Source: Nitriliruptorales bacterium
GTDB lineage: Bacteria > Actinomycetota > Nitriliruptoria > Nitriliruptorales > JAHWKO01
Direction: 5' to 3'
Length of the DNA: 64,000 bases
Assembly (NCBI GenBank): GCA_046263195.1
Contig: JBHELG010000039.1
Location: 4,906 to 68,905 of the forward strand
In this document: positions 18,211 through 37,965 of the stretch, in pieces
Numbering within the stretch: the first letter of the stretch is position 1
How the letters are laid out: each line of letters starts with the position of its first letter
The notes under the pieces: model-generated
The model's input: the letters and a program-made list of their open reading frames with translations, nothing else
Told to the model about the DNA's origin: nothing
Databases searched by the model: none
Program-made: the position numbers and the translations under genes

Positions 18211-18834
18211 TCAGGGGATGGGTACCCCCCAGATGGGAAACCAGCGGGTGAGGTCCTGCTCGATCTGAAGCTCGCCCCCGAGCGCCCCACGAATGCGAAG
18301 CTCGAGCTCGTTGTCGCGCCGCTCACCTTCGCGCGGCACGAAGGGATAGAACGTCCCGCGCTTGTAGAGGTAGACGAGGTGGGCGACGCGCCCCGGATCT
18401 GTCCCGCCCGCGGTCTTGGCAAGGCCAGGACCGCTTTCGCGCCCCAGCTCGTCTGTGAATGCGAACACGGAAGCGAGCAGCTGGGGGCCGAAGCCCCGCT
18501 CCTCGAGGGTGGCGTTCACGAGGTGCACGGTCGTGACGAGATCTTCGAGGTCGGGGTCGCGCACGATGATCCAGTGATAGCCATAGGAGTCCTGGTCCTG
18601 GGCAAGCTCGGACCCGGACTCTTTCGCGCTCACCGTCAGGAGTTCGGCTATCTCTTGTCTGGTCTCCTCGAAGACCTGGCCCGAGGCGGGGCGAAAGCAG
18701 ACTCCGGCGGCGCCGGCCTGCCGCAGCCCGAGCTCCGCCTCGAGGCCGACCGCGGCGCTCGGCAGTGCGAACAGGGCGTCGAGGTTCGCCTGCTTGCGCT
18801 TCGTACGTCCGAGGAGGACGTCGAGGAACCTCAC
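18211..18834 (-). CDS. PspA-associated protein (PspAB-like), containing a short hairpin-repeat insertion
   Basis: ORF trimmed to GTG at 18834, which forms a GTGA overlap with the htpX stop. It sits downstream of htpX in a pspA-pspAA-htpX cluster. The family assignment is from memory of the conserved actinobacterial cluster. Confidence 0.6.
   Translation of the reverse strand: MRFLDVLLGRTKRKQANLDALFALPSAAVGLEAELGLRQAGAAGVCFRPASGQVFEETRQEIAELLTVSAKESGSELAQDQDSYGYHWIIVRDPDLEDLVTTVHLVNATLEERGFGPQLLASVFAFTDELGRESGPGLAKTAGGTDPGRVAHLVYLYKRGTFYPFVPREGERRDNELELRIRGALGGELQIEQDLTRWFPIWGVPIP
18396..18445. repeat. hairpin-repeat family A, short form, inside the pspAB-like CDS
   Basis: GATCTGTCCCGCCCGCGGTCTTGGCAAGGCCAGGACCGCTTTCGCGCCCC is near-identical in layout to the short copy at 30388-30438. 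It is translated as [15 protein letters not shown]. Confidence 0.65.
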
Positions 18835-19751
18835 CTCGGCCGCCCCAGCTGGCGCTCGAGGGCCGCGAGCTGCTCGAGTCGGCGTTCCAGGCTTGGGTGG
18901 CTCGAGAAAAGCGACGACAGGCTGAACCCCGCCGAGATGGCCGGGGCGAAGAAGAACGCATTGAGGGGTTCGGCGGCGCGCAGGTCCCGGGTCGGAATGG
19001 CTCCCATCTCTCCGGTGACCTTGACGAGGGCGGCTGCCAGCGTGGCGGGCGCCCCGGTCAGGATTGCCCCCGAGCGGTCCGCGGACAGCTCCCGGTAGCG
19101 CGACAGCGCTCGGGTCAACAGGAAGCTCACCGCGTAGACCACCGCGGAGACGAGCAGGATGACGAGGAAGGCGGCGGCGCCCGAGTCCTCGTCGTCGTCG
19201 CCCATCCCGAACCCGCCCCACATGCCCATGTGCAGGCCGAAGCGGGTGATGAGGCCGGCGAGCACGCCGAGGAAGCTCGCGATGGTCATGACGGCGACGT
19301 CACGATGGGCGACGTGAGCCAACTCGTGGGCCAGCACGGCCTCGAGTTCGGGCAGTTCGAGGCGGTGCATGATCCCCGTCGTGACACACACGACGGCCAC
19401 CCGGGGGTTGCGTCCCGTGGCGAAGGCGTTGGGAAGGTCGAGGTCGGCGACGGCGACCCGTGGCTTGGGCATGTCAGCGAGGGCGCAGAGGCGGTCGACG
19501 ACGCCGTGGAGCTCGGGGGCTTCTTCCGCGCTGACCTCGCGCGCCCCGAGGCTCGCGAGCGCGATGCGGTCGGAGAACCAATACTGGGCGAACAAGAATC
19601 CCGCGGCTATGAGCACGACGAAGATGGTTGGCAGCCCCACCGCGATGAGCACGCCCATGAAAGCCACATAGAGCAGGCCCAGCAGGAACATGGTCCAAAG
19701 CATGCGGGCCGCCAGGCCCGTGTCGTGGGGATAGCGCGTCCGCATGTTCAA
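18831..19751 (-). CDS. htpX: M48-family zinc protease HtpX
   Basis: HELAHVAHRD zinc motif and multiple TM segments. TTG start at 19751 with GGGAGGGA 5 nt upstream; an alternative ATG lies at 19745. Confidence 0.9.
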   Translation of the reverse strand: MNMRTRYPHDTGLAARMLWTMFLLGLLYVAFMGVLIAVGLPTIFVVLIAAGFLFAQYWFSDRIALASLGAREVSAEEAPELHGVVDRLCALADMPKPRVAVADLDLPNAFATGRNPRVAVVCVTTGIMHRLELPELEAVLAHELAHVAHRDVAVMTIASFLGVLAGLITRFGLHMGMWGGFGMGDDDEDSGAAAFLVILLVSAVVYAVSFLLTRALSRYRELSADRSGAILTGAPATLAAALVKVTGEMGAIPTRDLRAAEPLNAFFFAPAISAGFSLSSLFSSHPSLERRLEQLAALERQLGRPR

Positions 19752-19899
19752 CTAGGTCCCTCCCGCCTCTGTCGCGGTCTGGCATATTCCCGGCCCGCCG
19801 GGCCTTCGGCCCTTCCCCGCAGACCCAAGACCGCCACTACGACCTCTTCCCCGAATCGGTCCCTCCCGCCTCCGTCGTACCACTGAGGACGTCCCACCC
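19752..19899. repeat. intergenic hairpin-repeat cluster (family A long form with ACTACGACCTC tail, flanked by a 20-bp direct repeat)
   Basis: GTCGCGGTCTGGCATATTCCCGGCCCGCCGGGCCTTCGGCCCTTCCCCGCAGACCCAAGACCGCCACTACGACCTCTTCCCC. GGTCCCTCCCGCCTC(T/C)GTCG occurs at 19755-19774 and 19858-19877. Confidence 0.65.
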
Positions 19900-20178
19900 T
19901 CATCCCGGAATCAGCCCCTCCTCACCGAGCAGCTCCCGCACCTCGGCAAGCGTCGCGTCGCGGGGCGGCAGGACGAGATCGGAGGGCCCGAGGTGATCGG
20001 GGGGCAGCGGGCGGCCGACGTCGAGGATGCGGTCGTGAAGGGCCACGAGCGCCTGCCGGAAGGTGTCCTCATCGCCTGAACCCACCGCGGAGACGAGCTC
20101 GTCGTCAAGCTCGTTGAGATGGTCGAAGGCCTCCTCGGAGACCTCGAACTGTCCTTCCCCCATGATACGCAGAATCAT
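19900..20178 (-). CDS. PspA-associated protein PspAA-like (92 aa)
   Basis: MILRIMGEGQFEV...LNELDDEL...ATLAEVRELLGEEGLIPG matches my recollection of the small protein encoded next to actinobacterial pspA. 4-nt overlap with the pspA stop. Confidence 0.7.
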   Translation of the reverse strand: MILRIMGEGQFEVSEEAFDHLNELDDELVSAVGSGDEDTFRQALVALHDRILDVGRPLPPDHLGPSDLVLPPRDATLAEVRELLGEEGLIPG

Positions 20179-20921
20179 GCGGTTCCCCCTGGTGGCGCAT
20201 CGATTGCCGGTTGCGATGGAGCCGGACCCACCTCTGCTCTGATGCGCTCGAGCTCCGCGTCCACGCTGTCCGTGGCCGACAGCCGGTCGAGCTGCGCCTG
20301 GATGTCGTCGCCGGGCTGCGCGGTGACGTCCTCGAGGGCCCCTGAGGCCAGCAGCTCGTCCACCGCTCCTGCCCGTGCCTGGAGTTGGGCGGTCTTGTCC
20401 TCGGCACGTTCGATTGCCAGGCCCACATCCCCCATCTCCTCGGAGATGCCGGCCACCGCCTCTCCGATCTTGCTCTGCGCCTCGGCTGCGGTGTAGGTGG
20501 CCTTGATCGTCTCCTTGCGCGTCCGGAAGGCCTCCACCTTCGCCTGAAGCCGTTGGGAAGCCGTGGTGAGCTTCGCCTCCTCCTGAGCCAGCTGCTCGTG
20601 CTGTACCCGGAGGCTTTCCAGCTGGGTGGCGAGGCCCGCCCGACGGCTCAGCGCCTCGCGAGCCAGATCCTCCCGACCGGCGGCCACGGCCTGGCGCGCC
20701 TGCGTCTCGAGCTTGGCCGCCGCCGACTGCAGCTGGGTGGCCTGGAGCTCGATCCGCTTGCGGGAGGTGGCCACGTCCGCCAGCCCTCGGCGAACCTTCT
20801 GCAGCAGCTCGAGCTGACGCTGATAGCTGTAATCAAGCGTCTCACGCGGGTCCTCGGCCCGGTCGAGCAGCCTGCTCGCCTTGGCTTTGAAGACGTCCGA
20901 CATCCGTTGCATCAGTCCCAT
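20175..20921 (-). CDS. pspA: PspA/IM30 family protein
   Basis: Start set at ATG 20921 (GGAAAGGAG 6 nt upstream). Long coiled-coil protein with an N-terminus (MGLMQRMSDVFKAKASRLLDRAEDPRETLDYSYQ) typical of PspA. Confidence 0.88.
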   Translation of the reverse strand: MGLMQRMSDVFKAKASRLLDRAEDPRETLDYSYQRQLELLQKVRRGLADVATSRKRIELQATQLQSAAAKLETQARQAVAAGREDLAREALSRRAGLATQLESLRVQHEQLAQEEAKLTTASQRLQAKVEAFRTRKETIKATYTAAEAQSKIGEAVAGISEEMGDVGLAIERAEDKTAQLQARAGAVDELLASGALEDVTAQPGDDIQAQLDRLSATDSVDAELERIRAEVGPAPSQPAIDAPPGGTA

Positions 20922-20944
20922 GCTGGCTCCTTTCCTCGAGAGCA

Positions 20945-23407
20945 CTAGCCTCGCAGGCTTCCGCCGATCTCCCCGACGGCCTCAGCCACGGCCTGGATCA
21001 CCGCTTCAGCGTCGGCATCGGTCAGCTGACGGTCGAGCGCCTGCAACCGCAGATGGAAAGCCAGGCTACGTTTCCCAGTCCCCACCTGTGGTCCGCGGTA
21101 TTCGTCGAACCACCACAATCCGTCGAGCCGCTCACCTGCTCCTGTCCGGACGGCCTCCTCGACCATCGCGAACGGCACGTCCTCGTCGGCCACGACCGCA
21201 ACGTCGACGCCAACCGCCGGGTGGCGGGCCAGAAGCGGTGCCTGGGGGGCCGGCAGCGCACGGCGGGCCAGGTGCTGCCAGAGCGGCTCGAGCAGCAACT
21301 CGGCGACGACGGTCGACTCGGGAAGGTTACGCGCGGACGCTTCGGCCGGGTGGAGTTGGCCGACGATACCCACTTCCGACCCCTGCCAGTACAGCGCCGC
21401 CGTTCGACCGGGGTGAAGAGCGGGATGATCGGCCCGCACCCGTGCCAGGCCGCTTGTCTCGCCGGGGGTCAGCCGGGCAACTACCTCGTCGAGGGCAGCA
21501 AGCAGATCGAAGATGCTCCACTTCGCGTCGCGATCGAGCCACCCATGCCCGTGCTGGGCGCCGCAGGCGAGCAGGCCAAGGGCGAGCGGCTGGGTCGGCA
21601 AGGTCTCCCCATTCGGACCCGTCCAGCGCCAGTTACCCGTCCGTCCGACGACCTCGTCCAAGGGGCCGCCGGGGACCCGGAAGATGCGACCGAGCTCGAA
21701 GACCGCCAGCCCCGACCGGCCTTGACCCACGTTGTGACGGGCCACTCCGAGCAGGCCCTCGACCAGGCCGGGCCGCATGCTCGCGACGTCCTTCGCCACC
21801 GGGTTCTGCAGCCTCACCCGGTGGGTGTCTCGAGGGGCGAGGAGACAGAGAGCGTTCAAAGCGACGAAGGGAAGGGTCTGAGACTCGTGAAAGCCGGCGG
21901 CGAGCACGGCTCTGCGAACATCGCGCTCGGCGCGCTGCCTGCTGTTGAGTCCTCCCTCGAGGGGGATCGACGGCAGGTTGGCGGGGATCTTCTCGTAGCC
22001 GTAGAGGCGAGCGATTTCCTCGGCCAGATCCGCCCCGCGTTGCAGGTCTGCACGCCAGGTCGGCGGAGTGGCTTCGAGCAGTCCGGCAGCCAGTGACTTG
22101 ACCTCCACCCCCGCACGTTGCAGCAGCGCGACCTGATCCTCGTCATCCAGCTCGGGCAGACCCAGGAAGCGGGCGGTGCGGGAGGTATCGAGGCGGATCG
22201 GGCGTGGACCCGGCTCTCCCGGCCCGTCGACGCGGACGCCGAGATCGGACCCGGTAGCGAGGTCAAGGAGCAGGTCGACCGCCCTCGCGGCCGCCCGCCA
22301 CGTGCCAGCAGCGTCAACTCGTCGTTCGAAGCGCAGACTGGACTCCGAGACGAGCCCGAGACGACGCGAGGTCTTCCGCACCGCACCAGGCTCGAACGCT
22401 GCAGCCTCGAGCAGGATCCGCGTCGTCGCTTCCCCGACCTCGGTGTCGCCGCCCCCCATGACGCCAGCGAGAGCCACGGCACGATCCTGATCGGCGATGA
22501 CGAGATCCTCGGGCTGAAGCACGCGGACACGGCCGTCGAGTGTCAGGAGGTTCTCCCCCGGCCGGCCCCAGCGCACCCGGATCCCGGGGCCGTACAGGGT
22601 GTCGAGGTCGAAGGCATGCAGCGGTTGACCGAGTTCGAGCATGACGTAGTTGGTCACGTCGACGAGGTTGAACAGCGATCGGACACCACACACTTCGAGC
22701 CGCCGGCGCAGCCACCAGGGCGACGTCGCCTGCTTCAGGTCCCCGACCACCCAGCCCACGTAGGTACTGCACCCTTCCACCGCTTCCACGTGGACGGGGA
22801 CCGGCCCATCGCCGGGAGTCCGCCCGGCCCCACGGCTGCTCGGCTCGTGGACCTCGATTCCGAGGATGGCGGCGAGGTCCCGGGCGATTCCGAACACCGA
22901 GTGGAGATCACCTCGGTCGGCCGGTACCGCAACGTCGACGACCGGCTCCCCGAGTGGAAGGACCTCGTGGATATCGCTGCCCGGCTCGGGTCCATCGTGC
23001 AACACCATGATGCCGCTGTGATCGTCCGCAACCTCGAGCTCGCGAGCGGAGCAGAGCATGCCGTCGCTCATCACTCCCCGTACCTCGCGCCGCTCGATGC
23101 GGCTGCCTCCGGGCAGGCTTGCGCCCGGCAAGGCGAGCGGGACGAGGTCGCCAGCCGCGAAGTTCCGCACACCGGCGCAGACGGTTCGCTCGTGCTCACC
23201 GTCGTCCACGTTCGCGACGACGAGCCTGTCGGCGTGAGGATGTTCGGAGACCTCCAGCACCCGTGCCACCCGTAGGCCCTCAACACCGGCACCCGGCGTC
23301 CGCACATCATCCACCTCGAGCCCGTTGCGTCCCATCACCTCGAGGAGTTCGTCGAGCGGCAGGTCGAGGTCGACGAACTCTGCCAGCCACGACAGCGGAA
23401 CCTTCAC
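20945..23407 (-). CDS. pheT: phenylalanine--tRNA ligase beta subunit
   Basis: VKVPLSWLAEFVDL N-terminus. The start is uncertain: GTG at 23407, or upstream GTG 23413 or ATG 23485. Lies downstream of pheS. Confidence 0.9.
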   Translation of the reverse strand: MKVPLSWLAEFVDLDLPLDELLEVMGRNGLEVDDVRTPGAGVEGLRVARVLEVSEHPHADRLVVANVDDGEHERTVCAGVRNFAAGDLVPLALPGASLPGGSRIERREVRGVMSDGMLCSARELEVADDHSGIMVLHDGPEPGSDIHEVLPLGEPVVDVAVPADRGDLHSVFGIARDLAAILGIEVHEPSSRGAGRTPGDGPVPVHVEAVEGCSTYVGWVVGDLKQATSPWWLRRRLEVCGVRSLFNLVDVTNYVMLELGQPLHAFDLDTLYGPGIRVRWGRPGENLLTLDGRVRVLQPEDLVIADQDRAVALAGVMGGGDTEVGEATTRILLEAAAFEPGAVRKTSRRLGLVSESSLRFERRVDAAGTWRAAARAVDLLLDLATGSDLGVRVDGPGEPGPRPIRLDTSRTARFLGLPELDDEDQVALLQRAGVEVKSLAAGLLEATPPTWRADLQRGADLAEEIARLYGYEKIPANLPSIPLEGGLNSRQRAERDVRRAVLAAGFHESQTLPFVALNALCLLAPRDTHRVRLQNPVAKDVASMRPGLVEGLLGVARHNVGQGRSGLAVFELGRIFRVPGGPLDEVVGRTGNWRWTGPNGETLPTQPLALGLLACGAQHGHGWLDRDAKWSIFDLLAALDEVVARLTPGETSGLARVRADHPALHPGRTAALYWQGSEVGIVGQLHPAEASARNLPESTVVAELLLEPLWQHLARRALPAPQAPLLARHPAVGVDVAVVADEDVPFAMVEEAVRTGAGERLDGLWWFDEYRGPQVGTGKRSLAFHLRLQALDRQLTDADAEAVIQAVAEAVGEIGGSLRG

Positions 23408-23509
23408 GGACACCGCCCTTTCACTGCTACTCCCAACCCGCCCGGTGAGCTCCGGTGACCAGAGCCGCCCCGCCCCGCCGTTCACGACGACCGCTCAGGC
23501 CCCGGACTC

Positions 23510-24556
23510 TCAGAAGGCTTCGAGAAAGCGGACATCGTTCTCGTAGAACTCGCGGATGTCGCGGACGCCGTGGCGGAGCATGGCAACCCTTTCGATCCCG
23601 ACGCCGAATGCGAACCCGGACACTTCCTCGGGGTCGAGCCCACAGGCGACCAGCACGTTCGGATCGACCATGCCCGCTCCGAGGATCTCGATCCAGCCGG
23701 TTCCCGAGCAGACCCGGCAGGCTGACTCGTCACCCGTACAGAACGGGCACGAGACGTCAACCTCGGCCGAGGGCTCGGTGAAGGGAAAGAACGAGGGCCG
23801 CAGGCGCACCTCCCGCTCTGGACCGAAAAAGGCACGAGCGAAGGCCTGGAGCGTACCCCGCAGGTCCGCCATCGTGAGACCGGCGGCAACCGCGAGACCC
23901 TCCACCTGTTGGAACACCGGTGAATGGGTCGCGTCGGGCGCGTCGTTGCGGTAGACGCGGCCCGGGACGACGACCGCGACGGGAAGTGGCTGGCTGAGCA
24001 GGACACGCACCTGCACGGGTGAGGTGTGCGTGCGGAGCAGCACCCCCTCGTCGTAGTCGACGTAGATGGTGTCCATCTCCTGCCGGGCCGGGTGCTCGAG
24101 GGGGATGTTGAGCAGATCGAAGTTGTAGATGGCCGATTCGACCTCGGGACCTTCGGCCACTCGGTAGCCGAGTCCGATGAACGCGTCCACGATGTCGTGC
24201 TCGACCTGCGTGAGCAGGTGGGGGCGGCCTGGGCGCAGGTGGCGCGGCGGGAGGGTGACGTCGACCCGCTCGGCTTCGAGGCGACGACTGAGCTCGGCGT
24301 CGGCGAGTTCGGTGCGACGGGCCTCGTAGCGTGCTTCGAACGCTTCCTTCAGGGCGTTGATGCGGGCGCCTAGTTCGCGCCGGCTCGTGGGGTCGAGCCC
24401 GCCGAGCTGGCGCTGGAGAGCAGCCACAGGGCTCTTGCGCCCCGCGAAGGCGACCCTGACGCGTTCGAGCTCCTCGAGGTCCGCCGCCTGCTCCAGACCC
24501 TGGAGTGCTTCGATGGCGAGCGCGTCGACGTCCGACGGGCTGGGAAGAACCGCCAC
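23510..24556 (-). CDS. pheS: phenylalanine--tRNA ligase alpha subunit
   Basis: Class II aaRS motifs including FFPFTEPSAEVDV and GAGMVDPNVL. Confidence 0.93.
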   Translation of the reverse strand: MAVLPSPSDVDALAIEALQGLEQAADLEELERVRVAFAGRKSPVAALQRQLGGLDPTSRRELGARINALKEAFEARYEARRTELADAELSRRLEAERVDVTLPPRHLRPGRPHLLTQVEHDIVDAFIGLGYRVAEGPEVESAIYNFDLLNIPLEHPARQEMDTIYVDYDEGVLLRTHTSPVQVRVLLSQPLPVAVVVPGRVYRNDAPDATHSPVFQQVEGLAVAAGLTMADLRGTLQAFARAFFGPEREVRLRPSFFPFTEPSAEVDVSCPFCTGDESACRVCSGTGWIEILGAGMVDPNVLVACGLDPEEVSGFAFGVGIERVAMLRHGVRDIREFYENDVRFLEAF

Positions 24557-24563
24557 CTCGTGC

Positions 24564-25478
24564 CTATCTGACCGGATAACGGAGGGTACCGGCTGGTCCA
24601 GGAGAGGTTGGGGGTGGGCCTGTTCGCGCGGCTCGCGCAGCGGCGTAGGCGGCGACGGCCACGGCGGCGCCCAAGTTCAAGGACTCGATGGGACCGTAAC
24701 GGGGGATCGAGACCGCCTCGACCGTGCCGACGACCGACTGTGGTAGGCCGTGGGCCTCGTTGCCGAACAGCAACGCGACCGGAGGTTGGAGGATCCCCGA
24801 GACTTCGATACTGCCGGTGGCAGAGGGGTCGAGCGCCAGGAACCGCTGACCGACTGAGCGGCAGGCGGCAAGCAGCTGGTCCACCTCGACGTCGACGACG
24901 AGAGGCAGGCGGGCAACGCTACCCGCGGAGGAACGAACCGCCTTCGGATTCCAGGGGTCGACCGAACCGGAGGTGAGTACGACGCCTGAGGCTCCCGCCG
25001 CAGTCGCAGTCCGGATTGCGCTGCCGACATTGCCGGGATCGGCGGCCCCGCACAGGACGATGAGGAAACCGCCCCCGACAACATCGGCGAGCTGACCTCG
25101 TCGTTGGCGGGCTACGGCGACGACCCCTTGGGGACTGACGCTGTCGGCCAGTCGGCGCAGGACTGGCGCCTCGACGAGCGTCAGGCGGGCAGCGGCCCGC
25201 TCGACGGCGTCCGTCAGATCAGCGGCGAAATGAGGCAGCGCGAAGACTTCTTCGACGTCGCCGGTGGACAGAAGCTCGGAGACGAAGCGAGGCCCCTCGA
25301 CGAGGTAGCGGCCTTCGGCGTCACGGGCACGGCGGCTCGCCAAGGATGCGGCGGCCTTTACCCGTGGGTTTCGCGGTGAACGAACGACTGGTTGGTCCAG
25401 CAGCTCAGGTCCGCTCTGCGCCACCGCTGGCGTCCGGACCGGTCGTGACCGTGGCATCGTTCGCCTCACCGAGAGCAC
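24564..25478 (-). CDS. TrmH/SpoU-family RNA 2'-O-methyltransferase
   Basis: NPRVK N-terminal motif plus [10 protein letters not shown] and [21 protein letters not shown]. The start is uncertain, because the annotated ORF start overlaps the rplT 3' end by 74 nt. Confidence 0.75.
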
Positions 25479-25821
25479 GCTTGGCCACCCCGACGAGCTG
25501 ACCGAACGCGGCCGCGTCGCGCACGGCGAGATCGGCGAGCATCTTGCGGTCGACTTCCACCTCGGCGATCTTCAACCCGTGCATGAACCGGCCGTAACTC
25601 AGCCCCTCCTGACGGGTGGCGGCGTTGATGCGGGTGATCCAGAGCCTGCGCAGGTCCCCTTTGCGCTTGCGACGGTCGCGATAGGCGTACCGCTCCGCGT
25701 GCATGACCGCTTCCTTGGCAGCCTTGTAATGGCGGCTGCGAGCGCCCCGGAAGCCCTTCGCACGCTCGAGGATCTCCCGGTGCTTCTTCTTCGCGTGAAC
25801 TCCGCGCTTCACGCGGGCCAT
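25405..25821 (-). CDS. rplT: 50S ribosomal protein L20
   Basis: [26 protein letters not shown]...; has a C-terminal extension of about 20 aa. Confidence 0.93.
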
Positions 25822-25834
25822 TGATCGGCTCCTC

Positions 25835-26026
25835 TCACAGGTTCAGCAGCTTCCTGGCAAGCTTGGAGGCGGGCTTGCCGAGCTCGTCGAGTCCGGCCAG
25901 GCGACGCTTGCGTCGCGAGCTCTTCTTCTCGAGTAGATGTGAGCGGTTGCGCTGCTTCGACAAGACCTTGCCGGTCCGGGTGACTCTGAAGCGCTTCTTC
26001 GCGCCACTGTGCGTCTTCTGTTTCAT
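25835..26026 (-). CDS. rpmI: 50S ribosomal protein L35
   Basis: [21 protein letters not shown]... Confidence 0.93.
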
Positions 26027-26094
26027 GCTCGCCTACCTGCCGCTTCTCGCGCCCTGGTCTTCGGCCACGGCTCCGGATGGCTCCTGCGGAGCAC

Positions 26095-26667: not shown

Positions 26668-26794
26668 GCTGCGCCCTCCTGTGGCTGGTTGGTAAGAATA
26701 AGACGAGCCGCCGCGAGGCGAGCGGCGGCCTCCCCTTCGTTCCCGCGCTTCGAGGCTACCAGCAGGGCGAGGTGGCTGGCGAGTGACTCGACCT

Positions 26795-26989
26795 CAATCG
26801 TCCCACCGGCGGTCTTTTCAGGCCCCAGGCCGCGACTACGACCTCTCCCCCAGAACCTGGCGTCCCGCCTCCGTCGCCGTCTGGACAAGTCTTGTCGCGG
26901 TCTGTCAGGCCCAAGCCCGCGACTACGACCTCTCCCCCAGAATCATGCCTTCCGGCCTCCGTGGCCGTCTTGGACACGTCTTGCCACGG
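26795..26989. repeat. intergenic cluster of hairpin repeats (2-3 units with CCNAGNCCGCGACTACGACCTCTCCCCCAGAA tails)
   Basis: AATCGTCCCACCGGCGGTCTTTTCAGGCCCCAGGCCGCGACTACGACCTCTCCCCCAGAA, then ...GTCCCGCCTCCGTCGCCGTCTGGACAAGTCTTGTCGCGGTCTGTCAGGCCCAAGCCCGCGACTACGACCTCTCCCCCAGAATC, then ...CCGTCTTGGACACGTCTTGCCACGG. Confidence 0.65.
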
Positions 26990-27037
26990 TTTTGCTGTGC
27001 GGGGACACGCTCCTGCTCCGAGACCGCCCTCCCACCC

Positions 27038-27601
27038 TCAGCGTCCGGGAATCCAGAGGCGGGAGGAGGCCGAGGAGGGCCGTTCCGACCTCTGGGCGGC
27101 GTCCTGACCCGCCGGCCGCGTCGTCTGCTCCCCACCGGGAGACACTGCCTCGGGCGGCAGGTCACCGCTCTCCTGCGCGGGTAGCTTTCCTTCGGCACGC
27201 AGCTTCGCGAGCTCTGATTCGGCTTCGACCTGCCCGAGACGCAGCTGATTGAGCGCCTGCTGCATCTGCTGCTTGAGACGATCCTCCACGTGGGGACCAC
27301 CCATGTCCGCCACGGTGGCCGCGACGTCGATGAGTAGCCGCGCGTCACGGCGACCGAGCTTGACCTCGGCGGCACTGGCGAGCAGCGAGAACGCCTGGGC
27401 GATGATGTCACCAATACCCGCCTGGCGCAGTTGTGCGAGGTAGGCGCGGACCTCGTCCTCACTGGGCTGGCGGGACTGCCCGCTCCCGGGAGCATCCCCC
27501 GGGGAGGCGGGGGTGTCCCCCGCCATGCCCGGCATCTGCCCGCCCGGCCCGGCCCCTCCGGGGCCAGGGGTGTCCCACTCCATACGCTGACTCTCACTCA
27601 T
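27038..27601 (-). CDS. DUF1844-like protein
   Basis: Core IIAQAFSLLASAAEVKLG matches my memory of DUF1844 proteins encoded next to infC in Streptomyces. Low-complexity G/P-rich N-terminus. SD GGGAGA lies upstream. Confidence 0.6.
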   Translation of the reverse strand: MSESQRMEWDTPGPGGAGPGGQMPGMAGDTPASPGDAPGSGQSRQPSEDEVRAYLAQLRQAGIGDIIAQAFSLLASAAEVKLGRRDARLLIDVAATVADMGGPHVEDRLKQQMQQALNQLRLGQVEAESELAKLRAEGKLPAQESGDLPPEAVSPGGEQTTRPAGQDAAQRSERPSSASSRLWIPGR

Positions 27602-27673
27602 GTCATTCTCCCGCGCGGTCCAGCGGCGGCGGATCGTGGACCGATCGTTCCTGCGACCCTCTCCGGCCAGTGG

Positions 27674-27985: not shown

Positions 27986-28116
27986 CGACGACCTCCTCGA
28001 ACTCTTTCCGCTGATCGTAGCGGGGCCCCGAGGCGAACCATGGGCGGGAGTACGCCCGGACGGGCTGACGGCTGAGAGACTTCGATTCCGCATCCGTGGC
28101 GACGTGAGGAAGCAGC

Positions 28117-29007: not shown

Positions 29008-29061
29008 CCGCCCGCGCCCCCGGCGCGGCCCGCAATCACCTCCGCCCGCGCCTGACGTGTC

Positions 29062-29532: not shown

Positions 29533-29533
29533 C

Positions 29534-31129
29534 TCAACGCTCCTCGGAGACGGCGGGATCAGGGACAGCTGGGGTCACCCCGGGCCCCGGGGCAAACGCG
29601 AGACCGTCGCAGACGACCCGGGATGGGCTCATGGGGCCCGGGCTGGTCGGGGTGAACAGGAACTCGGACTGGCGGGCGAGATCACCGACACCGGTCGAGT
29701 CGACCCTTCGCTCGTCAGCGATGGTGAAGACGTGTCCGAGCTTCTCCTGCTTCGTCGCGAGATAGAGAGCGTTGGCTGGGTTCGAGCGCACCTGGAGCGG
29801 TACGCGGTCGACGATCTCCAGACCGAATTCTGCGATGCCAGCCCGCTTCGCGGGGTTGTTCGTCAGTAGTCGCAGCGTCGAGAGCCCTAGGTCGGCGAGG
29901 ATCATCGCGGCGGTGCCGTAGCTGCGCGAGTCGGCGGGGAGGCCCAGGGCGAGGTTCGCGTCGACGGTGTCGCTGCCGTCGTCCTGGAGTTGGTAGGCCT
30001 GGAGCTTGTGGATGAGGCCGATGCCCCGTCCCTCGTGACCTCGCAGGTAGACCACGACACCGCGGCCTTCTTCGGCGATGCTCGCCATCGCAAGATCGAG
30101 CTGGGCACCGCAGTCGCAGCGCCGCGACCGGAAAACGTCCCCGGTCAGACACTCGGAGTGGACCCGCACGAGCACGTTGCGTGCGCCTTCGGTGTCGCCG
30201 TACGCGAGGGCGAGATGGTGTAGGCCGTCGACGAGCGATTCGTAACCGATCACCCGCCAGCTGCCGTAAGGGGTGGGAAGATGGGTCTCGGCGACGCGAC
30301 GAATTGTCCCGCCGGCGGTCTTGACTGTCCCCGCCCTCCGGGCCTGTGGCCCTCCCCCGGACAAGCCAAGACCGCCTTCCCGCCCAGGATCTGTCCCGCC
30401 GGCGGTCTTGGGCAAGCCAAGACCGCCTTCCCGCCCGGGCACGAGCCGCTCGCAACGGCGGCGGTAGGCGATGATGTCCGCGATGGAGATGAGCGGGAGA
30501 CGGTGCCGGTCGGCGAACTCCCTCAGCTCGGGAAGGCGGGCCATGGTGCCGTCGTCACCCATGATCTCGCAGATGACTCCCGCAGGATAGAGACCGGCGA
30601 GACGAGCCAGGTCGACGGCGGCTTCGGTGTGGCCGGGGCGCCGCAGGACTCCCCCCTCCGTGTAGCGGAGGGGGAAGACGTGGCCGGGGCGGCGGAAGTC
30701 GTTCGCAGCGGCCTCGGGGCTGAGCAAGCGCGCGATGGTGTGGGCCCGGTCGTAGGCGCTGATCCCGGTCGAGCGCGGGACGTCGAGGTCGATGGAGACC
30801 GTGAAGTTCGTGTCGGTGCTGGCGCTCGGGGAGGCGACCATGGGCCCGATGTCGAGTTCTTCGAGTCGTTTGGCGACGATCGCCACACAGATGAGGCCGC
30901 GGCCGAACCTCGCCATGAAGTTGACCGCTTCGGGTGTGATCTTCTCGGCGGCGATGACGAGGTCACCCTCGTTCTCGCGTTCGGCGTCATCGACGACGAT
31001 CACCATGCCGCCCTCGGCGATCCTGGCGCGTGCCTGCCCGATCGGGGCGTGCGGGAGCTCAGCCACCACGTCCGTCACCTCCGCCTGTGAGGTCGCCGCC
31101 GGCGCTCCCAGAGGCGTACGCCGCTCCAC
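29534..31129 (-). CDS. ribBA: bifunctional 3,4-dihydroxy-2-butanone-4-phosphate synthase / GTP cyclohydrolase II, with a repeat-derived linker insertion and a C-terminal extension
   Basis: [11 protein letters not shown] (RibB) and [18 protein letters not shown] (RibA). 531 aa, against the roughly 400-425 aa usual for this enzyme. The start is uncertain because the ORF overlaps the ribE 3' end by 71 nt; GTG at 31066 or 31069 is possible. Confidence 0.9.
30302..30440. repeat. hairpin-repeat family A: long copy (30302-30386) plus short copy (30388-30438) in tandem inside ribBA
   Basis: AATTGTCCCGCCGGCGGTCTTGACTGTCCCCGCCCTCCGGGCCTGTGGCCCTCCCCCGGACAAGCCAAGACCGCCTTCCCGCCCAGG followed by GATCTGTCCCGCCGGCGGTCTTGGGCAAGCCAAGACCGCCTTCCCGCCCGGG. 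Confidence 0.75.
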
Positions 31130-31727
31130 CCGCCGTCCGACGGAGAAGCTCCTGGAGATATTTCGCCACGACGTCGGCTTCGAGGTTCACCCGGTCACCG
31201 ATCGCCAGCCCCCCCAGGGTAGTGATCGCGCAGGTGTGCGGAACGAGGCCGACTCGGAAGGTCGCCGCGCTCGGATCGGTGTCGGCCACGGTCAGGCTGA
31301 CGCCCTGTAGGGCCACGGAGCCCCTCGGGACGAGGTAGGGGGCGACGGTCGCAGGCGCGGCGAGCGTGAGCAGGACGGTGCCCGGGTGCTCCTCGCGTCC
31401 CACGACCGTCCCGACTCCGTCGACGTGCCCCTGCACGAGGTGCCCGCCGAACCTTCCGTCGGCTCGTAGAGGCCGTTCGAGGTTGACAGGATCGTCGTCA
31501 CAGAGGTCTCCCAGCACGGTGGTCCGAAGTGTGTCGAGCATGAGGTCGGCTTCGAACCCGTTGGAGGTGAGCTTGGCGACAGTCAAGCAGCAGCCGTCGA
31601 CAGCGATCGAGGCGCCCATTTCCATACCGGCCAGGACCTGCACGCATGTGACGCCGAGGCGGGCGTGGCTCGCTGCTCGCTCGAGGCCGGTGACCCTCCC
31701 CACCTCTTCCACGATCCCCGTGAACAT
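31059..31727 (-). CDS. ribE: riboflavin synthase
   Basis: [13 protein letters not shown]-terminus and internal two-barrel duplication. Confidence 0.92.
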
Positions 31728-31735
31728 CTCGCCTC

Positions 31736-32860
31736 CTACCGGCCAACGTCGGCAGAGGCGGCGGGTTGGAGCGGCGGTTGCGGGCGGGCGACGATCACGA
31801 GGTCGCCTCCGAGCCGGTCCACCGAGTCAAGCCGCCACGTCCAGCGCTCGGCCAGCGAACGTGCGCCGGGGCCTGCGATGCTCGCGACACCGTCACCCCC
31901 GATCAGGGCGGGTGCCACATGCAGAACGAGGCGGTCAACCAGGTTCCCGCGTACGAGCGCCCCGGCGAGGGTGGGTCCGCCTTCCGCCAGCATCGCCTGG
32001 ACGTCGCGCTCGGCGCAGGCCTGCAGTGCGGCCGTGAGGTCCACACCGCCGCCCGCTGCGGGTGCGACAGTAACGACATCGACACCGCGTTCGGCCATGG
32101 CTCGGCGCCACTCCGGCTTGGACTGCGTCGTCGTGACAGCTATCGCCCCCGGACGAGCCGCCTTGGCGTTGGCAGGAATACGCCCACGCGCGTCGAGCAG
32201 GACGGGTCGGGGCTGGACCGGCGGCGCCGGTACGTGACGAACGGTCAATTCGGGGTCGTCGCCGAGCACCGTTCCCGAGCCCACCATGACCGCATCCATC
32301 CTCGCCCGGAGCGAATGAACGGCCGAACGTGCCTCGGACGAGCTGATCCACCGACTGGAGCCGTCGCGTGCGGCAGCCCGCCCATCGAGGGTCTGGGCGA
32401 GCTTGAGGGTCACGAACGGCCGACCCGTGCGGTGGAAGTGGACGAAGACCTCGTTCTGCTGTGATGCCTCGTCCGCCATCAGTCCACCGCTCACCGTGAG
32501 CCCGGCCGCACGAAGTCGTTCGGCGCCTCCTCGCGCGTGGGCGGTGGGCTCGGTCAGGGCATAGACCACGCGAGCTACACCGGCGTCGATGAGCGCGTCG
32601 GCGCACGGCCCGGTGCGCCCGTGATGAGCGCATGGTTCGAGGGTGACGTAGGCCGTGGTACCCCTCGCCCGTCCTCGAGCCGTCCCCAGCGCGACGATCT
32701 CCGCGTGTGGACCTCCTGCCCGTTCGTGCCAACCCTCGCCGACGACCGCGCCTTGATGGACGAGCACGCACCCGACCAGCGGGTTCGGTCGCACAGTGGC
32801 CCGACCGCGCTCGGCGAGTTCAAGCGCCCTGCGCATATGAACCTCGTCGAGCGCAGCCAC
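31736..32860 (-). CDS. ribD: bifunctional diaminohydroxyphosphoribosylaminopyrimidine deaminase / 5-amino-6-(5-phosphoribosylamino)uracil reductase
   Basis: ORF trimmed to GTG at 32860 (or ATG at 32836). HAEIVAL and PCAHHGRTGPC deaminase motifs. The removed 5' part overlaps rsmB. Confidence 0.9.
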   Translation of the reverse strand: MAALDEVHMRRALELAERGRATVRPNPLVGCVLVHQGAVVGEGWHERAGGPHAEIVALGTARGRARGTTAYVTLEPCAHHGRTGPCADALIDAGVARVVYALTEPTAHARGGAERLRAAGLTVSGGLMADEASQQNEVFVHFHRTGRPFVTLKLAQTLDGRAAARDGSSRWISSSEARSAVHSLRARMDAVMVGSGTVLGDDPELTVRHVPAPPVQPRPVLLDARGRIPANAKAARPGAIAVTTTQSKPEWRRAMAERGVDVVTVAPAAGGGVDLTAALQACAERDVQAMLAEGGPTLAGALVRGNLVDRLVLHVAPALIGGDGVASIAGPGARSLAERWTWRLDSVDRLGGDLVIVARPQPPLQPAASADVGR

Positions 32861-32927
32861 CTCAGGTCCTCGATCTTGCCGTCGACGTGTATCCGGGAGA
32901 GCTTTGCAATGGGGCTGACCGCCGCCG

Positions 32928-34256
32928 TCACCACTTCCGCCGTAGAGTGGCATGGTACATGGCGTCGGTACCGTCTCGGTGGGGCCAACGCTGCACCTCC
33001 TCGACGAGGACGAAGCGGGCGTCGCGCTCGAGGAAGCCGGCCACGATCGCCGTCGTCTCCGGCTGCGTCCAGGTGCAGGCCGCATACGTGACATGACCAC
33101 CGGGGCGGGTGCGTTCCCCGCCGGCTGCGAGGAGCCGACGCTGGAGACGGGCGAGCTCGTACGCGTCATTCTGCGTGCGGCGCCAGCGGACCTCGGGACG
33201 GCGGCGCCCGGTACCGAACCCTGTGCAGGGGGCGTCGACGAGCACGACGTCGAAGCTTCCCTCCACCGGCGGGTCGGTCCCGTCCCCGACCCGCACGTCG
33301 GCCGCGACACCGAGTTTCGCCGCGGCTGCCCTGACGAGCTCGGCGCGGTGCGGGTGCAGCTCCACGGCGACGACCTGGCCCTCGGGGCCGGCGAGGGTGG
33401 CGAGATGAGTCGTCTTCCCACCGGGCCCGGCGCACAGGTCGAGGACGCGGTCGCCGTCTTGGACCCGCGTGGCATGCACGACGAGCATGGAGGCTTCGTC
33501 CTGGGGCACGGCCCGACCCTCCGCGACCGCAGCCAGCCGGCGCGGATCGGCCCCCTGCGCCCGGACCGCCTCCGGCGCGTGCCTTCCCGGCAAGGCCTCG
33601 ACCCCGCTGGCGCGCAGCTCCGACAGGAGCTCGTCTCGGTCGCCTACTGCTCGCAGCGTGAGACCCGGCGGGATGTTGTCGCCCTCGAGCGCCGCCCGCG
33701 CCTCGTCGCGACCCAGACGCTCGACAAGCTCGGCGGTCAGCCAGGAAGGGTGGGCGGTCGTGAGCGCGAGACTGCCGACGGGATCGGTCGCCGGCTCAGG
33801 CCAGTCCAGGCCCTTGCTGACCCGGCGGGAGAGAGCGCGCAGCACTCCGTTCACGAAGGCGGCGGCGCGCCGGGAACGGGGGTTCGGCACCACCTCCCGG
33901 GCAAGGTGGACCGCGGTCGCCACCGCCGCAGCGGGTGGCACCTCGGTTCGGAGCAGTTGAAGCGCCCCGAGCCGCAGCAGGCGTCGCAGCGGCGGCTCGA
34001 CAGCGTCGAGCGGACGATCAAGGACCTGCTCGAGTGCCCAGTCGAGCGTTCCCTCCCAGCGCAAGGTGTCGTAGGCGAGGTGGCTCGCGAAGGACCGGTC
34101 ACGAGCGTCGCGCAGCCGGCTGACAGCTGCAGGGACGGCAAGGTTGCTGTAGGCGCCTTCCTCGTCGACAGCCCGCAGCGCGACGAGCGCCGCTCGTCGC
34201 GCGGGCAGACCGGGCCCCGACGTCTCCCCCCGACGGGCGACGAGGTCCTCAACCAC
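32928..34256 (-). CDS. rsmB: 16S rRNA (cytosine-C5)-methyltransferase RsmB/Sun-like
   Basis: NusB-like N-terminus, DLCAGPGGKT SAM motif, DAPCTGFGT and YAACTW. Confidence 0.85.
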   Translation of the reverse strand: MVEDLVARRGETSGPGLPARRAALVALRAVDEEGAYSNLAVPAAVSRLRDARDRSFASHLAYDTLRWEGTLDWALEQVLDRPLDAVEPPLRRLLRLGALQLLRTEVPPAAAVATAVHLAREVVPNPRSRRAAAFVNGVLRALSRRVSKGLDWPEPATDPVGSLALTTAHPSWLTAELVERLGRDEARAALEGDNIPPGLTLRAVGDRDELLSELRASGVEALPGRHAPEAVRAQGADPRRLAAVAEGRAVPQDEASMLVVHATRVQDGDRVLDLCAGPGGKTTHLATLAGPEGQVVAVELHPHRAELVRAAAAKLGVAADVRVGDGTDPPVEGSFDVVLVDAPCTGFGTGRRRPEVRWRRTQNDAYELARLQRRLLAAGGERTRPGGHVTYAACTWTQPETTAIVAGFLERDARFVLVEEVQRWPHRDGTDAMYHATLRRKW

Positions 34257-35169
34257 CCAAGACCTCCCCAGGCTCTGGCCGGTAACCGCGGACGAACGCC
34301 GCCCCTGACATGGCCGGCCGTCCTTCCGGTTGCAGCTCGGTCAGGATGACGGCCCCCTCGCCGGTGCCCACGACCGGTCCCTGGTGATCCTCTCCCACGA
34401 ACTGGCTGGGCATCCCCTCGAAGTCGGTGACGCGCGCGCGCCAGACCTTCAGCCGGCGACCGCGAAAGACGGTGTGCGCACCGGGCGCCGGGTTGGCGCT
34501 GCGTACGAGGCGCACGACCTCAGTCGCGGAAGACTTCCAGTCGATGGCCACGTCCTCGGAGGCGACTTTCCGGGCCAGGGTGACCCCCTCGGCTGGCTGA
34601 GGCACGGGCTGCTCGCCGGCGACGAGACGACGAAGGCTGTCGAGCAGGACAGGGGCACCGAGCCGTGCCAGCCGGGCGAGCAGCTCTCCGGCCGTCTCTT
34701 CCGGTCCGATCTCGACCTTCATCTGCTCGAGGACCGGCCCGGTGTCCATGCCCTCATCGAGCACGAAGGTCGTCACGCCGGTGACCTGGTCCCCCGCTCG
34801 TATGGCGTGTTGGACGGGAGCCGCACCGCGCCAGCGGGGCAGCAGCGAGAAGTGGAGGTTGACGAACCCGTGACGTACCGCGGCGAGCACGGCGGGAGGC
34901 AGGAGCGCCCCGTAGGCCACCACGGCGGCGGCTTCGAGGTCGAGCGCCTCCAGCCGGGGAGCAATCTCGGCCGCCCGCATCGGCTGGCAGACCGGCAGGT
35001 CGAGGTCGTGGGCGACCACCTTCACGGGCGGCGGAACCGGACGGCGAGAACGACCGCGTGGGCGGTCGGGGTTCGTGACGACGACGGCCACTTCGACATC
35101 CTCGGCTGCGGCGAGCGTCTGAAGCGCGGGCTCGGCTACGTCGGGCGTGCCGAAGAAGGCGATCCGCAC
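34249..35169 (-). CDS. fmt: methionyl-tRNA formyltransferase
   Basis: MRIAFFGTP... and HFSLLPRWRGAAP. Confidence 0.93.
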   Translation of the reverse strand: MRIAFFGTPDVAEPALQTLAAAEDVEVAVVVTNPDRPRGRSRRPVPPPVKVVAHDLDLPVCQPMRAAEIAPRLEALDLEAAAVVAYGALLPPAVLAAVRHGFVNLHFSLLPRWRGAAPVQHAIRAGDQVTGVTTFVLDEGMDTGPVLEQMKVEIGPEETAGELLARLARLGAPVLLDSLRRLVAGEQPVPQPAEGVTLARKVASEDVAIDWKSSATEVVRLVRSANPAPGAHTVFRGRRLKVWRARVTDFEGMPSQFVGEDHQGPVVGTGEGAVILTELQPEGRPAMSGAAFVRGYRPEPGEVLGG

Positions 35170-35188
35170 GAGTCAACCTCTGGTGCCG

Positions 35189-35725
35189 TCAGAGCCGTAG
35201 GCCGGCACTGGGCTCGGACAGATCGTCGAGACCGCGCTCGAGGCTGTGCTCGCGCATGCGCTTGAGCGCCTCCTTGCGGTCGTGCTTCGCGAGGTGGTCG
35301 ATGAAGAGCACGCCGTTGAGGTGATCGATCTCGTGGAGGAACACCCGGGCCAGGAGTCCCTCAGCGTCCGTGAGCTGCTCGTCGCCGGACCCGTCCTGGT
35401 GTCGCACCCTCACCCAAATCGGCCGCTCAAGAGGGTAGAACAGGCCGGGAAACGACAGGCAGCCCTCCTCGCCCTCCTGAAGTTCCTCGGAAGCGTCCTC
35501 GACGACCGGGTTGCAGACCGTGCCGTGGCGATCCTTGACCTCCCAGGTGAACAGGCGTTTCAGCACTCCCACCTGATTGGCGGCGAGGCCGCCGCCGCCG
35601 GCCTCGCGCATGGTTTCGAACATGTCGTCGGCAAGCCGCCGCAGACGTGCATCGAAGGAGGTCACCTCCCGCGCACGCTGCCGAAGCACAGGGTCGCCGA
35701 AAAGGCGGATGTCGAGGATGGCCAC
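35189..35725 (-). CDS. def: peptide deformylase
   Basis: Trimmed to GTG at 35725. Motifs GLAANQVG, EGCLSFPG and HEIDHLNG. Confidence 0.9.
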   Translation of the reverse strand: MAILDIRLFGDPVLRQRAREVTSFDARLRRLADDMFETMREAGGGGLAANQVGVLKRLFTWEVKDRHGTVCNPVVEDASEELQEGEEGCLSFPGLFYPLERPIWVRVRHQDGSGDEQLTDAEGLLARVFLHEIDHLNGVLFIDHLAKHDRKEALKRMREHSLERGLDDLSEPSAGLRL

Positions 35726-35826
35726 GAGACACCCTGACCGGTCGGGGACGATGCGCCCCAGGGTACGCGACAGCCGACAAGCGCGGGCCAGGTCAACGAG
35801 TCGTGCCGCCCGTCGTGATCTGGGCC

Positions 35827-37965
35827 TCATCCCACATCGACGGGGTCTACATCGACCCTCACGTCGAGGCCCTCCCGGCTCCACACCACACGCAGTGGAG
35901 TGAGCGCGGCGAGCGTCGATGAGCGGTCGGCACTCTTCACGAGCAGACCGGAGCGCTCGCCGAGCGGACGGGGTCCGAGCACCTGGTCGCTGCCGGGGAG
36001 GCCACTGCGCAGGTCGGCGGCGACCCGCCGACCGTCGCCATGGACGTCGAGTCGAATCGCGTAGGCGGCGGGGGGAAAGCGCAGTTCACCTCTTCGGCGT
36101 GCTTCCTCACGCCAGAACGCTCCCGGGTCCCAAGCCACGAGCGCACGGACCGCGTGATGCCCAGGCTCCCGCGTCTGCACGACGACCGCCCCGTCCGGCA
36201 CGAGCGCGCCACGGGTGGCCGACCCGGGGCGCTTCACGCCGGCTGAGCGGGATGGCCACGCGGCCACCCGGAAAGCGAGCCTCAGGGCATCCTCGCCGGC
36301 ATCGAGTGTGGGACGCCTGAGCTGACCGTCGAGATCCGGTAGCACGACCGCCCCCACGGGACCGGGTGGCTCTGACAGGGCCGAGCCCCTCGTCATGACC
36401 ACGATCGCGGGAGGCGGCGGTGCGGGCTGCGCGTATCCCTCCAACACCGCCACGACCGTGTTCCGAAAGGTCCTGGCGAGTTCCGAGCCCAGGCGCGCCG
36501 CTCCCGCCGCGAGCGGCGCAAAGACGTCACCGCCGCAACGGCCGCAGCGCATGTGCTCACGTTCTGTCGTCCAGCCGCACCCCTCGCAGAGGACGGCCAA
36601 GTCACGACCCGTCCCGCCCGCGGTCTCGGCCCTCCCCGCCCTCCGGGCCTGCGGCCCTCCCTCGGGCAGGCCAAGACCGCTCACCCACCCGGAGGCGACC
36701 GCGAGAGAGGAGTCGCACCTTGGGCAGGCGAACCTTTCGCTGCATCGACTGCACAGGAGGGCACGACCCTCCCCGCGACGAGCAGCGAGCACGACTCCGA
36801 GTTCTCCACGCTTCAGGCATGACCGCAGGGCCTCGACGGCGGGAGTGCCGAGTCGGCCGGGAGAACCGGAGAGGGAGCGATCGTCGAGGCGCACGATGGG
36901 AGCCGCGGACCGTTCGGCGCTCCGGTCTGGTACGACCGGCCGCAGGCGCCGCTCGGCGAGCAGACGCCAAGCTGCGGCGCTCGGGACGGTGCCGACCAGT
37001 ACGGCGGTTGCGCCCGCTCGCCGCGCCCGTTCGAGCACGACCTCGCGGGCGTGGTGCCGGGGAGCGCGCCGCTCCTTGAGAGCCGGGTTCGCCTCGTCAA
37101 TGATGACGGCCAGCCCGAGTCGGGCGAGGGGCCAGAACGCCACGCCTCGTTCCCCGACCACGACCCGAAGCTGCCCGCAGCGAGCCTCGAGCCACCCCCG
37201 GTACAGGCGCCTGGCGCCAGGCCCGCCCCGCATGTCGACGGCCAGGTCCCGGAAGGCGTGCGTGACTGCATCGGCCGCGCAGCTCTTCGGCTCCGGTACG
37301 ACGACGAGGACGTCGCGACCTCCGTCCAAGGTGGCCGCGGCGAGTTCAACGAGTCGGACGCCGAGGTTCTCGTGTGGCAGCGTCCTCCAGTAGAAGGCCC
37401 CCGCTCCAGCTTCAGCCGCAACTCTGAGCTCGCTCCCCGCGTGGCCGTAGGGCGACCATGCGCTGTCATCGATCGCGACAGGCTCGGGATCGGGGGGACG
37501 AGCTGCCCGTCCGGGGGGGTACCACCCCGCCTCCTCGGCGCGGCGTTCGACGTCGCTGACGCGCTGGGGTAGGGCGTGGCGGATCACTGCGGCGGTCGGG
37601 GCGGCGAAGCGCTGTGCTGCCCAGCGCAGGACTTCGATCTCTTCCGGCGTCGCCCAGGCGTGCGGGCCGAGAACGCGCCGCACCTCACGGAGCTTGTGGG
37701 ACGACGTGTCTTGCGTCAGGGCGACGACGAGGCCGCGCACGCGCCGACCGGCGAAGACGACTTCGACGCGGGAGCCCACTCGGATGCGAGGCGCGAGTGC
37801 CTCGGGGAGGGCATAGTCGAAGGGACGGTCGAGGTGGTCGGGCTCGACCTCGACGAGAACCTGTGCGATGGGCAGCTGGTCAGACCCCGACGGCTTCGCG
37901 GAGTTCGTCCGCCCGGTCGGCGCGCTCCCAGGTGAAGGTGGCGCCGCTGCGCCCGAAGTGCCCAT
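35827..37965 (-). CDS. priA: primosomal protein N' (PriA), with a repeat-derived insertion in the Cys-rich region
   Basis: N-terminal FDYALPE, helicase-core-like region and a Cys cluster [14 protein letters not shown]...CEGCGW...CGRCGG. The ATG at 37965 overlaps the metK 3' end by 86 nt, so the true start is uncertain. Confidence 0.85.
36607..36692. repeat. hairpin-repeat family A, long form, inside priA
   Basis: ACCCGTCCCGCCCGCGGTCTCGGCCCTCCCCGCCCTCCGGGCCTGCGGCCCTCCCTCGGGCAGGCCAAGACCGCTCACCCACCCGG aligns along its length with the ribBA long copy. Confidence 0.75.

Follow-up and report, generated by a model that had tools for sequence, protein, structure and literature searches.

REP/RPE-like palindromic repeats within protein-coding genes of a Nitriliruptorales genome

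In Rickettsia, the repeats referred to as Rickettsia palindromic elements or RPEs are located between genes as well as in frame within functional genes, where they are tolerated and viewed as selfish (Ogata et al. 2000, as cited in PMC2229807 and PMC10969869). Repetitive extragenic palindromes or REPs comprise GTAG- and CGTC-tagged superfamilies linked to REP-associated tyrosine transposases (RAYTs), and the RPEs of Rickettsia are CGTC-tagged (Di Nocera et al. 2013, PMC3733652). Here, a family of short GC-rich palindromic repeats is described from a 64,000-nucleotide stretch of the metagenome-assembled genome (MAG) of a Nitriliruptorales bacterium (GCA_046263195.1, contig JBHELG010000039.1, positions 4,906 to 68,905), hereafter the window, in which copies are found in frame within the genes pspAB, ribBA, priA and argC.

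Intragenic REPs were previously identified in several bacteria, among them Opitutus terrae, Sphingomonas and Rhodopseudomonas, and genes of replication or repair frequently host them (PMC3733652). The frames in which they are translated can be followed in Additional file 3 of that survey. In O. terrae, GTAG-17 repeats read VAGVADPGPGSASPA or one half of it in about 26 of 28 listed cases and GTAG-18 repeats always read VGPALAAG. The CGTC-1 repeats of R. conorii are spread over four or more frames with comparable frequencies, and the GTAG-19 repeats of O. terrae are also read in several frames. The one-frame bias of some families is visible in these data and was apparently not analysed there, as the word 'frame' only occurs in the main text within 'in-frame' and 'open reading frame(s)' (PMC3733652). 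The survey reported GTAG repeats in Proteobacteria, Cyanobacteria, Chloroflexi and the Planctomycetes-Verrucomicrobia-Chlamydiae (PVC) group only and never mentions Actinobacteria; no paper dealing with REP doublets (REPINs), RAYT and Actinobacteria together was found.

The repeats of the window constitute a new, lineage-restricted case of a known class, that of the protein-invading REP/RPE-like repeats. All four copies having the same orientation as their host gene are translated in the same frame of the element. The explanation favored here, with a probability of roughly 0.6, is that the repeat is selfish and that only stop-free, in-frame copies encoding a benign peptide survive within genes.

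The repeat and its insertion into genes

The sense of the repeat is taken as the minus strand of the window, whose GC content is 68% with a GC content at third codon positions (GC3) of about 0.8-0.9. The short form, CCCGGGCGGGAAGGCGGTCTTGGCTTGCCCAAGACCGCCGGCGGGACAGAT, is 51 nt or 17 codons long. It is organized around a GC-rich stem of 10 bp, GCGGTCTTGG/CCAAGACCGC, with a 5-nt loop, and the stem is surrounded by G-rich flanks (GGGYGGGA... on the left and ...GGCGGGAC on the right). The long form (87 nt, 29 codons) has the same ends and carries in the loop an additional 36-nt inner module with a GGGCC/GGCCC hairpin. The short form has a predicted folding energy of -24.6 kcal/mol, and that of the long form ranges from -43 to -48 kcal/mol. 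The 10-bp stem and 5-nt loop make of the element a short GC-rich imperfect palindrome of the kind that defines REPs. No stop codon is present in any of the six frames of the short form. The opposite strand of each copy starts with YGTC-CCGCC-S-GCGGTCTTGG, in which 6 nt separate the YGTC tag from the stem; the tag is CGTC in the priA and argC copies and in two copies of a related MAG (L082), and TGTC in the others.

The four same-orientation copies are on the minus strand, at the positions given in a preliminary description of the window. A short copy in pspAB (18397..18447) has one stem mismatch and a shifted loop, and is read as LGRESGPGLAKTAGGTD. The interdomain linker of ribBA carries a 51-nt short copy with a perfect 10-bp stem (30389..30439), directly followed by an 87-nt long copy with the 36-nt inner hairpin in its loop (30302..30388). 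Another long copy in priA (36607..36693) is located between two CxxC pairs of the zinc-binding region. The preliminary description had counted five such copies; searches with nhmmer, using models of the short and long forms, and six-frame motif scans detected no fifth same-orientation intragenic copy, and the number amounts to four, at three loci. The fifth intragenic copy of the window is a long form in argC (9207..9293, plus strand) which lies outside the interval first described and is antisense to its gene.

The exact ends of the element are known solely at ribBA, where empty sites exist. This gene (29534..31066, minus strand) codes for a protein, 100% identical to P0001, with a 3,4-dihydroxy-2-butanone 4-phosphate (DHBP) synthase and a GTP cyclohydrolase II domain, between which a 46-residue insert is found. 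In distant RibBA orthologs, ..ERLV is directly joined to RRV.. at the exact position of this insert. The comparison of filled and empty sites (CTCGTG, insert, CGTCGC) revealed neither a repeated flank nor a target duplication, insertion without target-site duplication being a property of REPs. Sized by the empty sites, the two inserts are 51 and 87 nt long, both multiples of three, and the units of intergenic tandem arrays in related MAGs measure 49-51 nt. AlphaFold2 modeling of RibBA from an alignment of 62 sequences gave two confident domains connected by a coil at residues 209-251, with predicted local distance difference test (pLDDT) values of 33-39.

The other hosts are in agreement with insertion. 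For PriA (gene at 35827..37965, minus strand), the ortholog of the syntenic relative L140 is devoid of the insert segment. The Pfam match of PspAB (gene at 18211..18830, minus strand, with an approximate start and a Pfam domain from residue 131 of the longest open reading frame) extends over 205 residues for 188 profile positions, that is about 17 extra residues. The Pfam NAD-binding match of ArgC (P0121, 381 aa; gene at 8541..9686, minus strand) covers 174 residues for 120 profile positions and is stretched by about 50. Pfam searches confirmed the identity of PspAB, RibBA and PriA. All internal copies are found in interdomain linkers or loops, and RibBA, PriA, PspAB and ArgC, as well as the NadE of a related MAG described below, are full-length with intact Pfam domains on either side of the insert, as expected for in-frame insertion of the RPE type. 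These inserts account for odd length differences and low-complexity segments in the RibBA, PriA, ArgC, PspAB and NadE proteins of these MAGs.

A lower bound on the age of the ribBA insertion is given by the related MAG L001 (GCA_030155285.1), whose RibBA is 83% identical. One copy is present at the same ribBA site with an identical right junction and a wholly different inner module. Because the same site is filled in both genomes, the insertion is older than their split. The right end of the long ribBA copy is identical to that of its L001 ortholog over 22 of 22 nt, with 6 differences among 25 positions at the left end, and the flanking gene is 86% identical. The loop of the element is thus a place of module exchange or nesting. 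A variant copy is also found in L001 at the ribE-ribBA junction (1476-1562), which the RibE frame enters in the Arg/Trp frame of the element and in which it stops. The ribBA gene of another relative, L002 (GCA_030863405.1), does not contain the element around 3410-3440. An unlike insert of 30 nt (QGGEHPPTPG) lies 9 nt upstream; the start of this insert, CAGGGCGGGGAA, resembles the left flank of the element, and the insert could represent a remnant or a further variant.

A genome collection was scanned with a pattern of the right terminus. Most matches were due to chance and the real loci numbered at least nine, distributed among three related MAGs from desert soil. The NadE protein of L121 has a CN-hydrolase and a NAD-synthase domain, and the linker joining them holds a perfect short copy read in the Arg/Trp frame. 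The other copies among the matches listed are intergenic: two isolated ones are found in gene spacers or 5' regions, and the rest make up two tandem arrays with three units each. These intergenic copies fill the spacers of co-directional genes and are also arranged in arrays: L082 (1902-2048) and L097 (4023-4154) each contain three short-form units in direct tandem without spacer, with periods of 50-51 nt and 49 nt, respectively.

A sister family with the same stem was identified in the window. Its stem is preceded by GAGGTCGTAGT, with a GTAG tetranucleotide 2-3 nt 5' of the stem. Five such tags, at three loci that are all intergenic, are found in the window for 0.27 expected by chance. Sites of this family (GAGGTCGTAGTxGCGG...) are located at 19745-19880, 26819-26990 and 48683-48760. 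The first (19745..19880, minus strand) is a long intergenic variant built on the GCGGTCTTGG stem, with GGGCC/GGCCC as its inner hairpin and direct repeats of GGCGGGAGGGAC on either side, and the last (48683..48760, plus strand) is made of two adjoining partial copies at a gene boundary (GAGGTCGTAGTxGCGGTC...). The second is part of a nested mosaic upstream of infC (26797..27040, minus strand), whose 244 nt fill the intergenic spacer; its outer termini are those of the intragenic type of element and enclose two GTAG-tagged units of about 87 nt. This mosaic was considered as a fifth same-orientation copy and rejected, the KTAGGT reading at 26816 being in a non-coding, intergenic frame upstream of infC. 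The infC frame, coding for the initiation factor IF-3, has no ordinary start codon close by, which is usual for this gene. Overall, elements occur singly, in tandem arrays or nested in one another's loops.

Reading frames of the intragenic copies

The pspAB, priA and both ribBA copies are translated in a single frame of the element, here frame 1, as GGLGL(P/S...)KTAGGT. This agreement, already pointed out in the preliminary description, holds for all four same-orientation copies. The argC copy is read ..RGL..GQPKTA.. (RPPRGLVSPRPPGLQSFPGQPKTAPAQ); since the element is palindromic, this frame is the mirror image of frame 1. The three-frame translations previously given for the ribBA copies are correct and stop-free. 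The openness of all three frames does not extend to the priA copy, which contains a TGA in the AVLACP frame, and the reported lack of Cys and Trp does not apply to this copy, with one Trp, nor to the orthologous L001 copy, with Trp and Cys.

The three classes of frames encode very different peptides. Frame 1 has a net charge of 0 and a G+A+S+T+P content of 65%, versus +5 and 29% for the Arg/Trp frame, and the third sense frame contains a hydrophobic AVLAC patch with Cys and Pro. Charge is lowest in the peptides of frame 1 and its mirror, which abound in Gly, Ala, Thr and Pro. Codon adaptation was also considered as a cause of the frame choice and is ruled out by the codon adaptation index, which is not highest in frame 1 (0.51 versus 0.60 and 0.49 in the other sense frames) with a similar GC3.

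The weight of the frame agreement depends on how many independent insertions are counted. Among 25 positions of the left end, a single one distinguishes the short from the long ribBA copy, compared with 4 or more for all other pairs, and the short copy is missing in L001. The short copy is therefore best seen as a local duplicate of the resident copy or as an insertion templated by it. The caveat, formulated from the start, that the ribBA pair could stem from a single event is thereby largely borne out. As the ribBA copies are not independent, three same-orientation events remain and the chance of a shared frame is about 1/9 instead of the 1/81 first proposed. If the mirror frame of argC is placed in this class too, the chance for four loci is 1/27 given the first. 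Adding NadE, four of five independent loci fall into the GLG..KTA class, with P ~0.14 if any class could be the majority. Frame 1 is not obligatory because the L121 NadE copy uses the Arg/Trp frame. There is no demonstrated selection for a single frame, and the NadE copy refutes exclusive use.

The preservation of the hairpin was assessed in the same copies. Stems are perfect in six of six intergenic copies versus two of seven intragenic ones. The mismatches of the five remaining intragenic copies are uncompensated; within genes, the hairpin is not being maintained. Such degraded stems fit old, decaying insertions without selection to keep the hairpin. At the peptide level, the comparison of the window and L001 ribBA copies, which offers few sites, gave no clear signal of purifying selection. 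The suggestion that the peptide itself is selected was twofold. A benign flexible linker agrees with the linker and loop sites, the predicted disorder and the low charge, and a tolerated flexible linker is a reasonable view that fits the anatomy of the insertions; nothing was found in support of a functional module.

Explanations of the shared frame

According to the survivorship explanation favored above, lineage-restricted REP/RPE-like palindromic elements, themselves non-autonomous, would spread by insertion. They would probably be mobilized in trans by a transposase of the IS200/IS605 type (RAYT-like), without target duplication. Most copies would be intergenic. Survival within an essential gene would require that the frame is kept (51 and 87 nt at ribBA) and that the used frame contains no stop, and also that the site is a linker or surface loop and that the peptide is harmless to folding. 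Frame 1 and its mirror, being uncharged, Gly/Ala/Thr/Pro-rich and presumably disordered, would pass this filter most easily. The exact lengths of 51 and 87 nt in ribBA, as opposed to 49-51 nt in the intergenic arrays, are what such a filter predicts. The frame agreement in the window would then be explained in part by survivorship and in part by small numbers and non-independence, and it is no evidence of a peptide function.

Several observations weigh against this explanation. The NadE copy, perfect and apparently young, is in the Arg/Trp frame. The preference for frame 1 is statistically unestablished, given P ~0.14. The YGTC tag is 6 nt away from the stem and there is no clean terminal CGTC. 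No RAYT gene was identified, no search aimed at it having been made, and the mobilization step is inferred. Lastly, the disorder predicted by AlphaFold2 is weak evidence because the alignment holds no homologs of the insert and a low pLDDT is expected anyway.

The most serious competitor of the survivorship explanation, although a rather unlikely one, is that any stop-free frame is retained equally and that the shared frame is a small-sample accident inflated by the ribBA tandem. The counts given above suit it well, with three independent same-orientation loci only (P ~1/9) and ribBA copies that are each other's nearest relatives, the long one being orthologous to the L001 copy. The NadE copy and the L001 RibE frame, which enters its copy in the Arg/Trp frame, illustrate the use of another frame, and the intragenic CGTC-1 REPs of R. 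conorii show that a family can be distributed at similar frequency over at least four frames. However, the antisense argC copy, in the mirror of frame 1, brings four of five loci into one of three classes whose peptides differ strongly in charge and composition, and some published families are themselves used near-exclusively in one frame.

Alternatively, the GTAG-less subfamily could be a REP lineage adapted to coding sequence, with genes, above all the interdomain linkers of essential enzymes, as a preferred safe haven. The six stop-free frames of the short form, the lengths of 51 and 87 nt, the Gly-rich peptide in one frame per orientation and the intragenic position of five of the six GTAG-less copies in the window, versus GTAG tags that are all intergenic, are the observations on which this proposal is built. 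It is considered improbable.

A mechanistic phase bias is more doubtful still. IS200/IS605-type elements insert beside short specific motifs, and a target motif tied to a codon phase in high-GC coding DNA could set the frame at the time of insertion. Similar GC-rich hexamers indeed open the right flanks of several copies (CGTCGC, CGTGAC, GGTCGAC, ACGCGAC), and a GC3 of about 0.8-0.9 implies that short motifs are strongly phase-biased. Nevertheless, a common target motif is not definable from five sites, exact ends are available at ribBA only, the NadE copy is in a different phase, and the units of the intergenic arrays were inserted or duplicated side by side without obvious external target.

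Finally, a domesticated function, either of the GGLGL..KTAGGT module or of an mRNA hairpin located at domain boundaries (-25 to -48 kcal/mol), for instance in translational pausing, is very unlikely: the hairpins are stable, the ribBA and NadE copies lie exactly at domain boundaries, and the ribBA insertion was kept since the split from L001 with its right 22 nt identical versus about 86% identity in the flanking gene, but the inner modules at this same site are entirely different in the two genomes, five of the seven intragenic copies have uncompensated stem mismatches, L-to-P, R-to-W and G-to-S replacements are found among the peptide changes, disorder is predicted for the insert, the hosts are unrelated enzymes of which closer and more distant orthologs function without insert, and the long-form peptide was found in no protein outside the lineage among 1.84 billion representatives.

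Distribution and comparison with known systems

The repeat family appears from these searches to be lineage-restricted, with a narrow distribution. The nearest syntenic relatives, L139 and L140, do not contain the element. In a Joint Genome Institute (JGI) metagenome collection, zero matches to the strict short form or to the bare stem-loop were obtained; a viral collection gave only chance coding matches and a BLAST search of plasmids no match. At gathering score, no Rfam family was detected anywhere in the 64 kb. The rib operon of the window comprises ribD, ribE, ribBA and ribH, yet no flavin mononucleotide (FMN) riboswitch was found at the Rfam gathering score.

Protein searches led to the same picture. 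The profile of the long-form frame-1 peptide retrieved a single unrelated repeat protein from 1.84 billion representative proteins, a set in which insert-free orthologs evidently represent the clusters to which the host proteins belong. This protein, P0122, is a predicted protein of 220 aa made of repeats of LPAGPQARRSGFHD; it matches the profile in the inner-module part only and is probably the translation of a GC-rich hairpin repeat of another organism. A concatenated query of the peptides from five frames returned only the ArgC protein P0121, candidates having probably been crowded out by the low complexity of the query. In local HMMER simulations, multi-frame profiles remained below reporting thresholds and stacked ones had E-values > 10.

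Other repeats of the window are of a different nature. The protein encoded by an open reading frame of 1491 codons (11868-16343, minus strand) has a Big_3_3 match besides some 10 HYR domains, and the periodicity of 237-240 nt in its DNA gives rise to the largest direct-repeat families of the window. Two local repeats are found at 56151-56228 and 42692-42793: a tandem duplication of 39 nt with 90% identity, and a unit of 30 nt occurring twice 72 nt apart and also internally palindromic, respectively.

Provided that a strong excess of the Gly-rich frame is real, the family would offer a natural experiment on the peptide insertions that essential enzymes tolerate and on the way in which mobile hairpin repeats make interdomain linkers longer. 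It would also extend in-frame colonization of genes of the REP/RPE type to the Actinomycetota, for which it was not reported in the 2013 REP survey.

Among the described systems are the MITEs, or miniature inverted-repeat transposable elements, whose open reading frames are fused to host genes, such as ERIC, the 107-bp Correia element and YPAL, which possess terminal inverted repeats and target-site duplications (Delihas, PMC2229807). In the present family, the termini are direct-like G-rich flanks, the inverted repeat is internal and no duplication was seen at ribBA. The REP/REPIN-RAYT systems resemble the present family, with many-copy stem-loops, a GTAG sister family, clustering and the lack of target-site duplication at ribBA as shared traits. 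They differ from the repeats of the window by their inverted REP doublets, none of which was seen here, and by the high intragenic share in the window. The GTAG/CGTC REPs found within genes are likewise short GC-rich stem-loops with a tetranucleotide near one end; they are for the most part extragenic, and those inside genes often have replication and repair genes as hosts, here priA. In contrast to them, the YGTC tag is 6 nt from the stem, the arrays are direct tandems instead of inverted dimers, and the inserts, of 17 or 29 residues, are longer. The Rickettsia RPEs are presumably unrelated in sequence and reside in AT-rich genomes, whereas the present repeats belong to a high-GC Nitriliruptorales MAG, have units of 51 or 87 nt versus about 105-150 bp, and form nested loop hairpins and direct tandem arrays. 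With the RPEs they nevertheless share a conserved peptide per family and in-frame copies in the genes of conserved proteins, a likeness of behavior and not of family membership.

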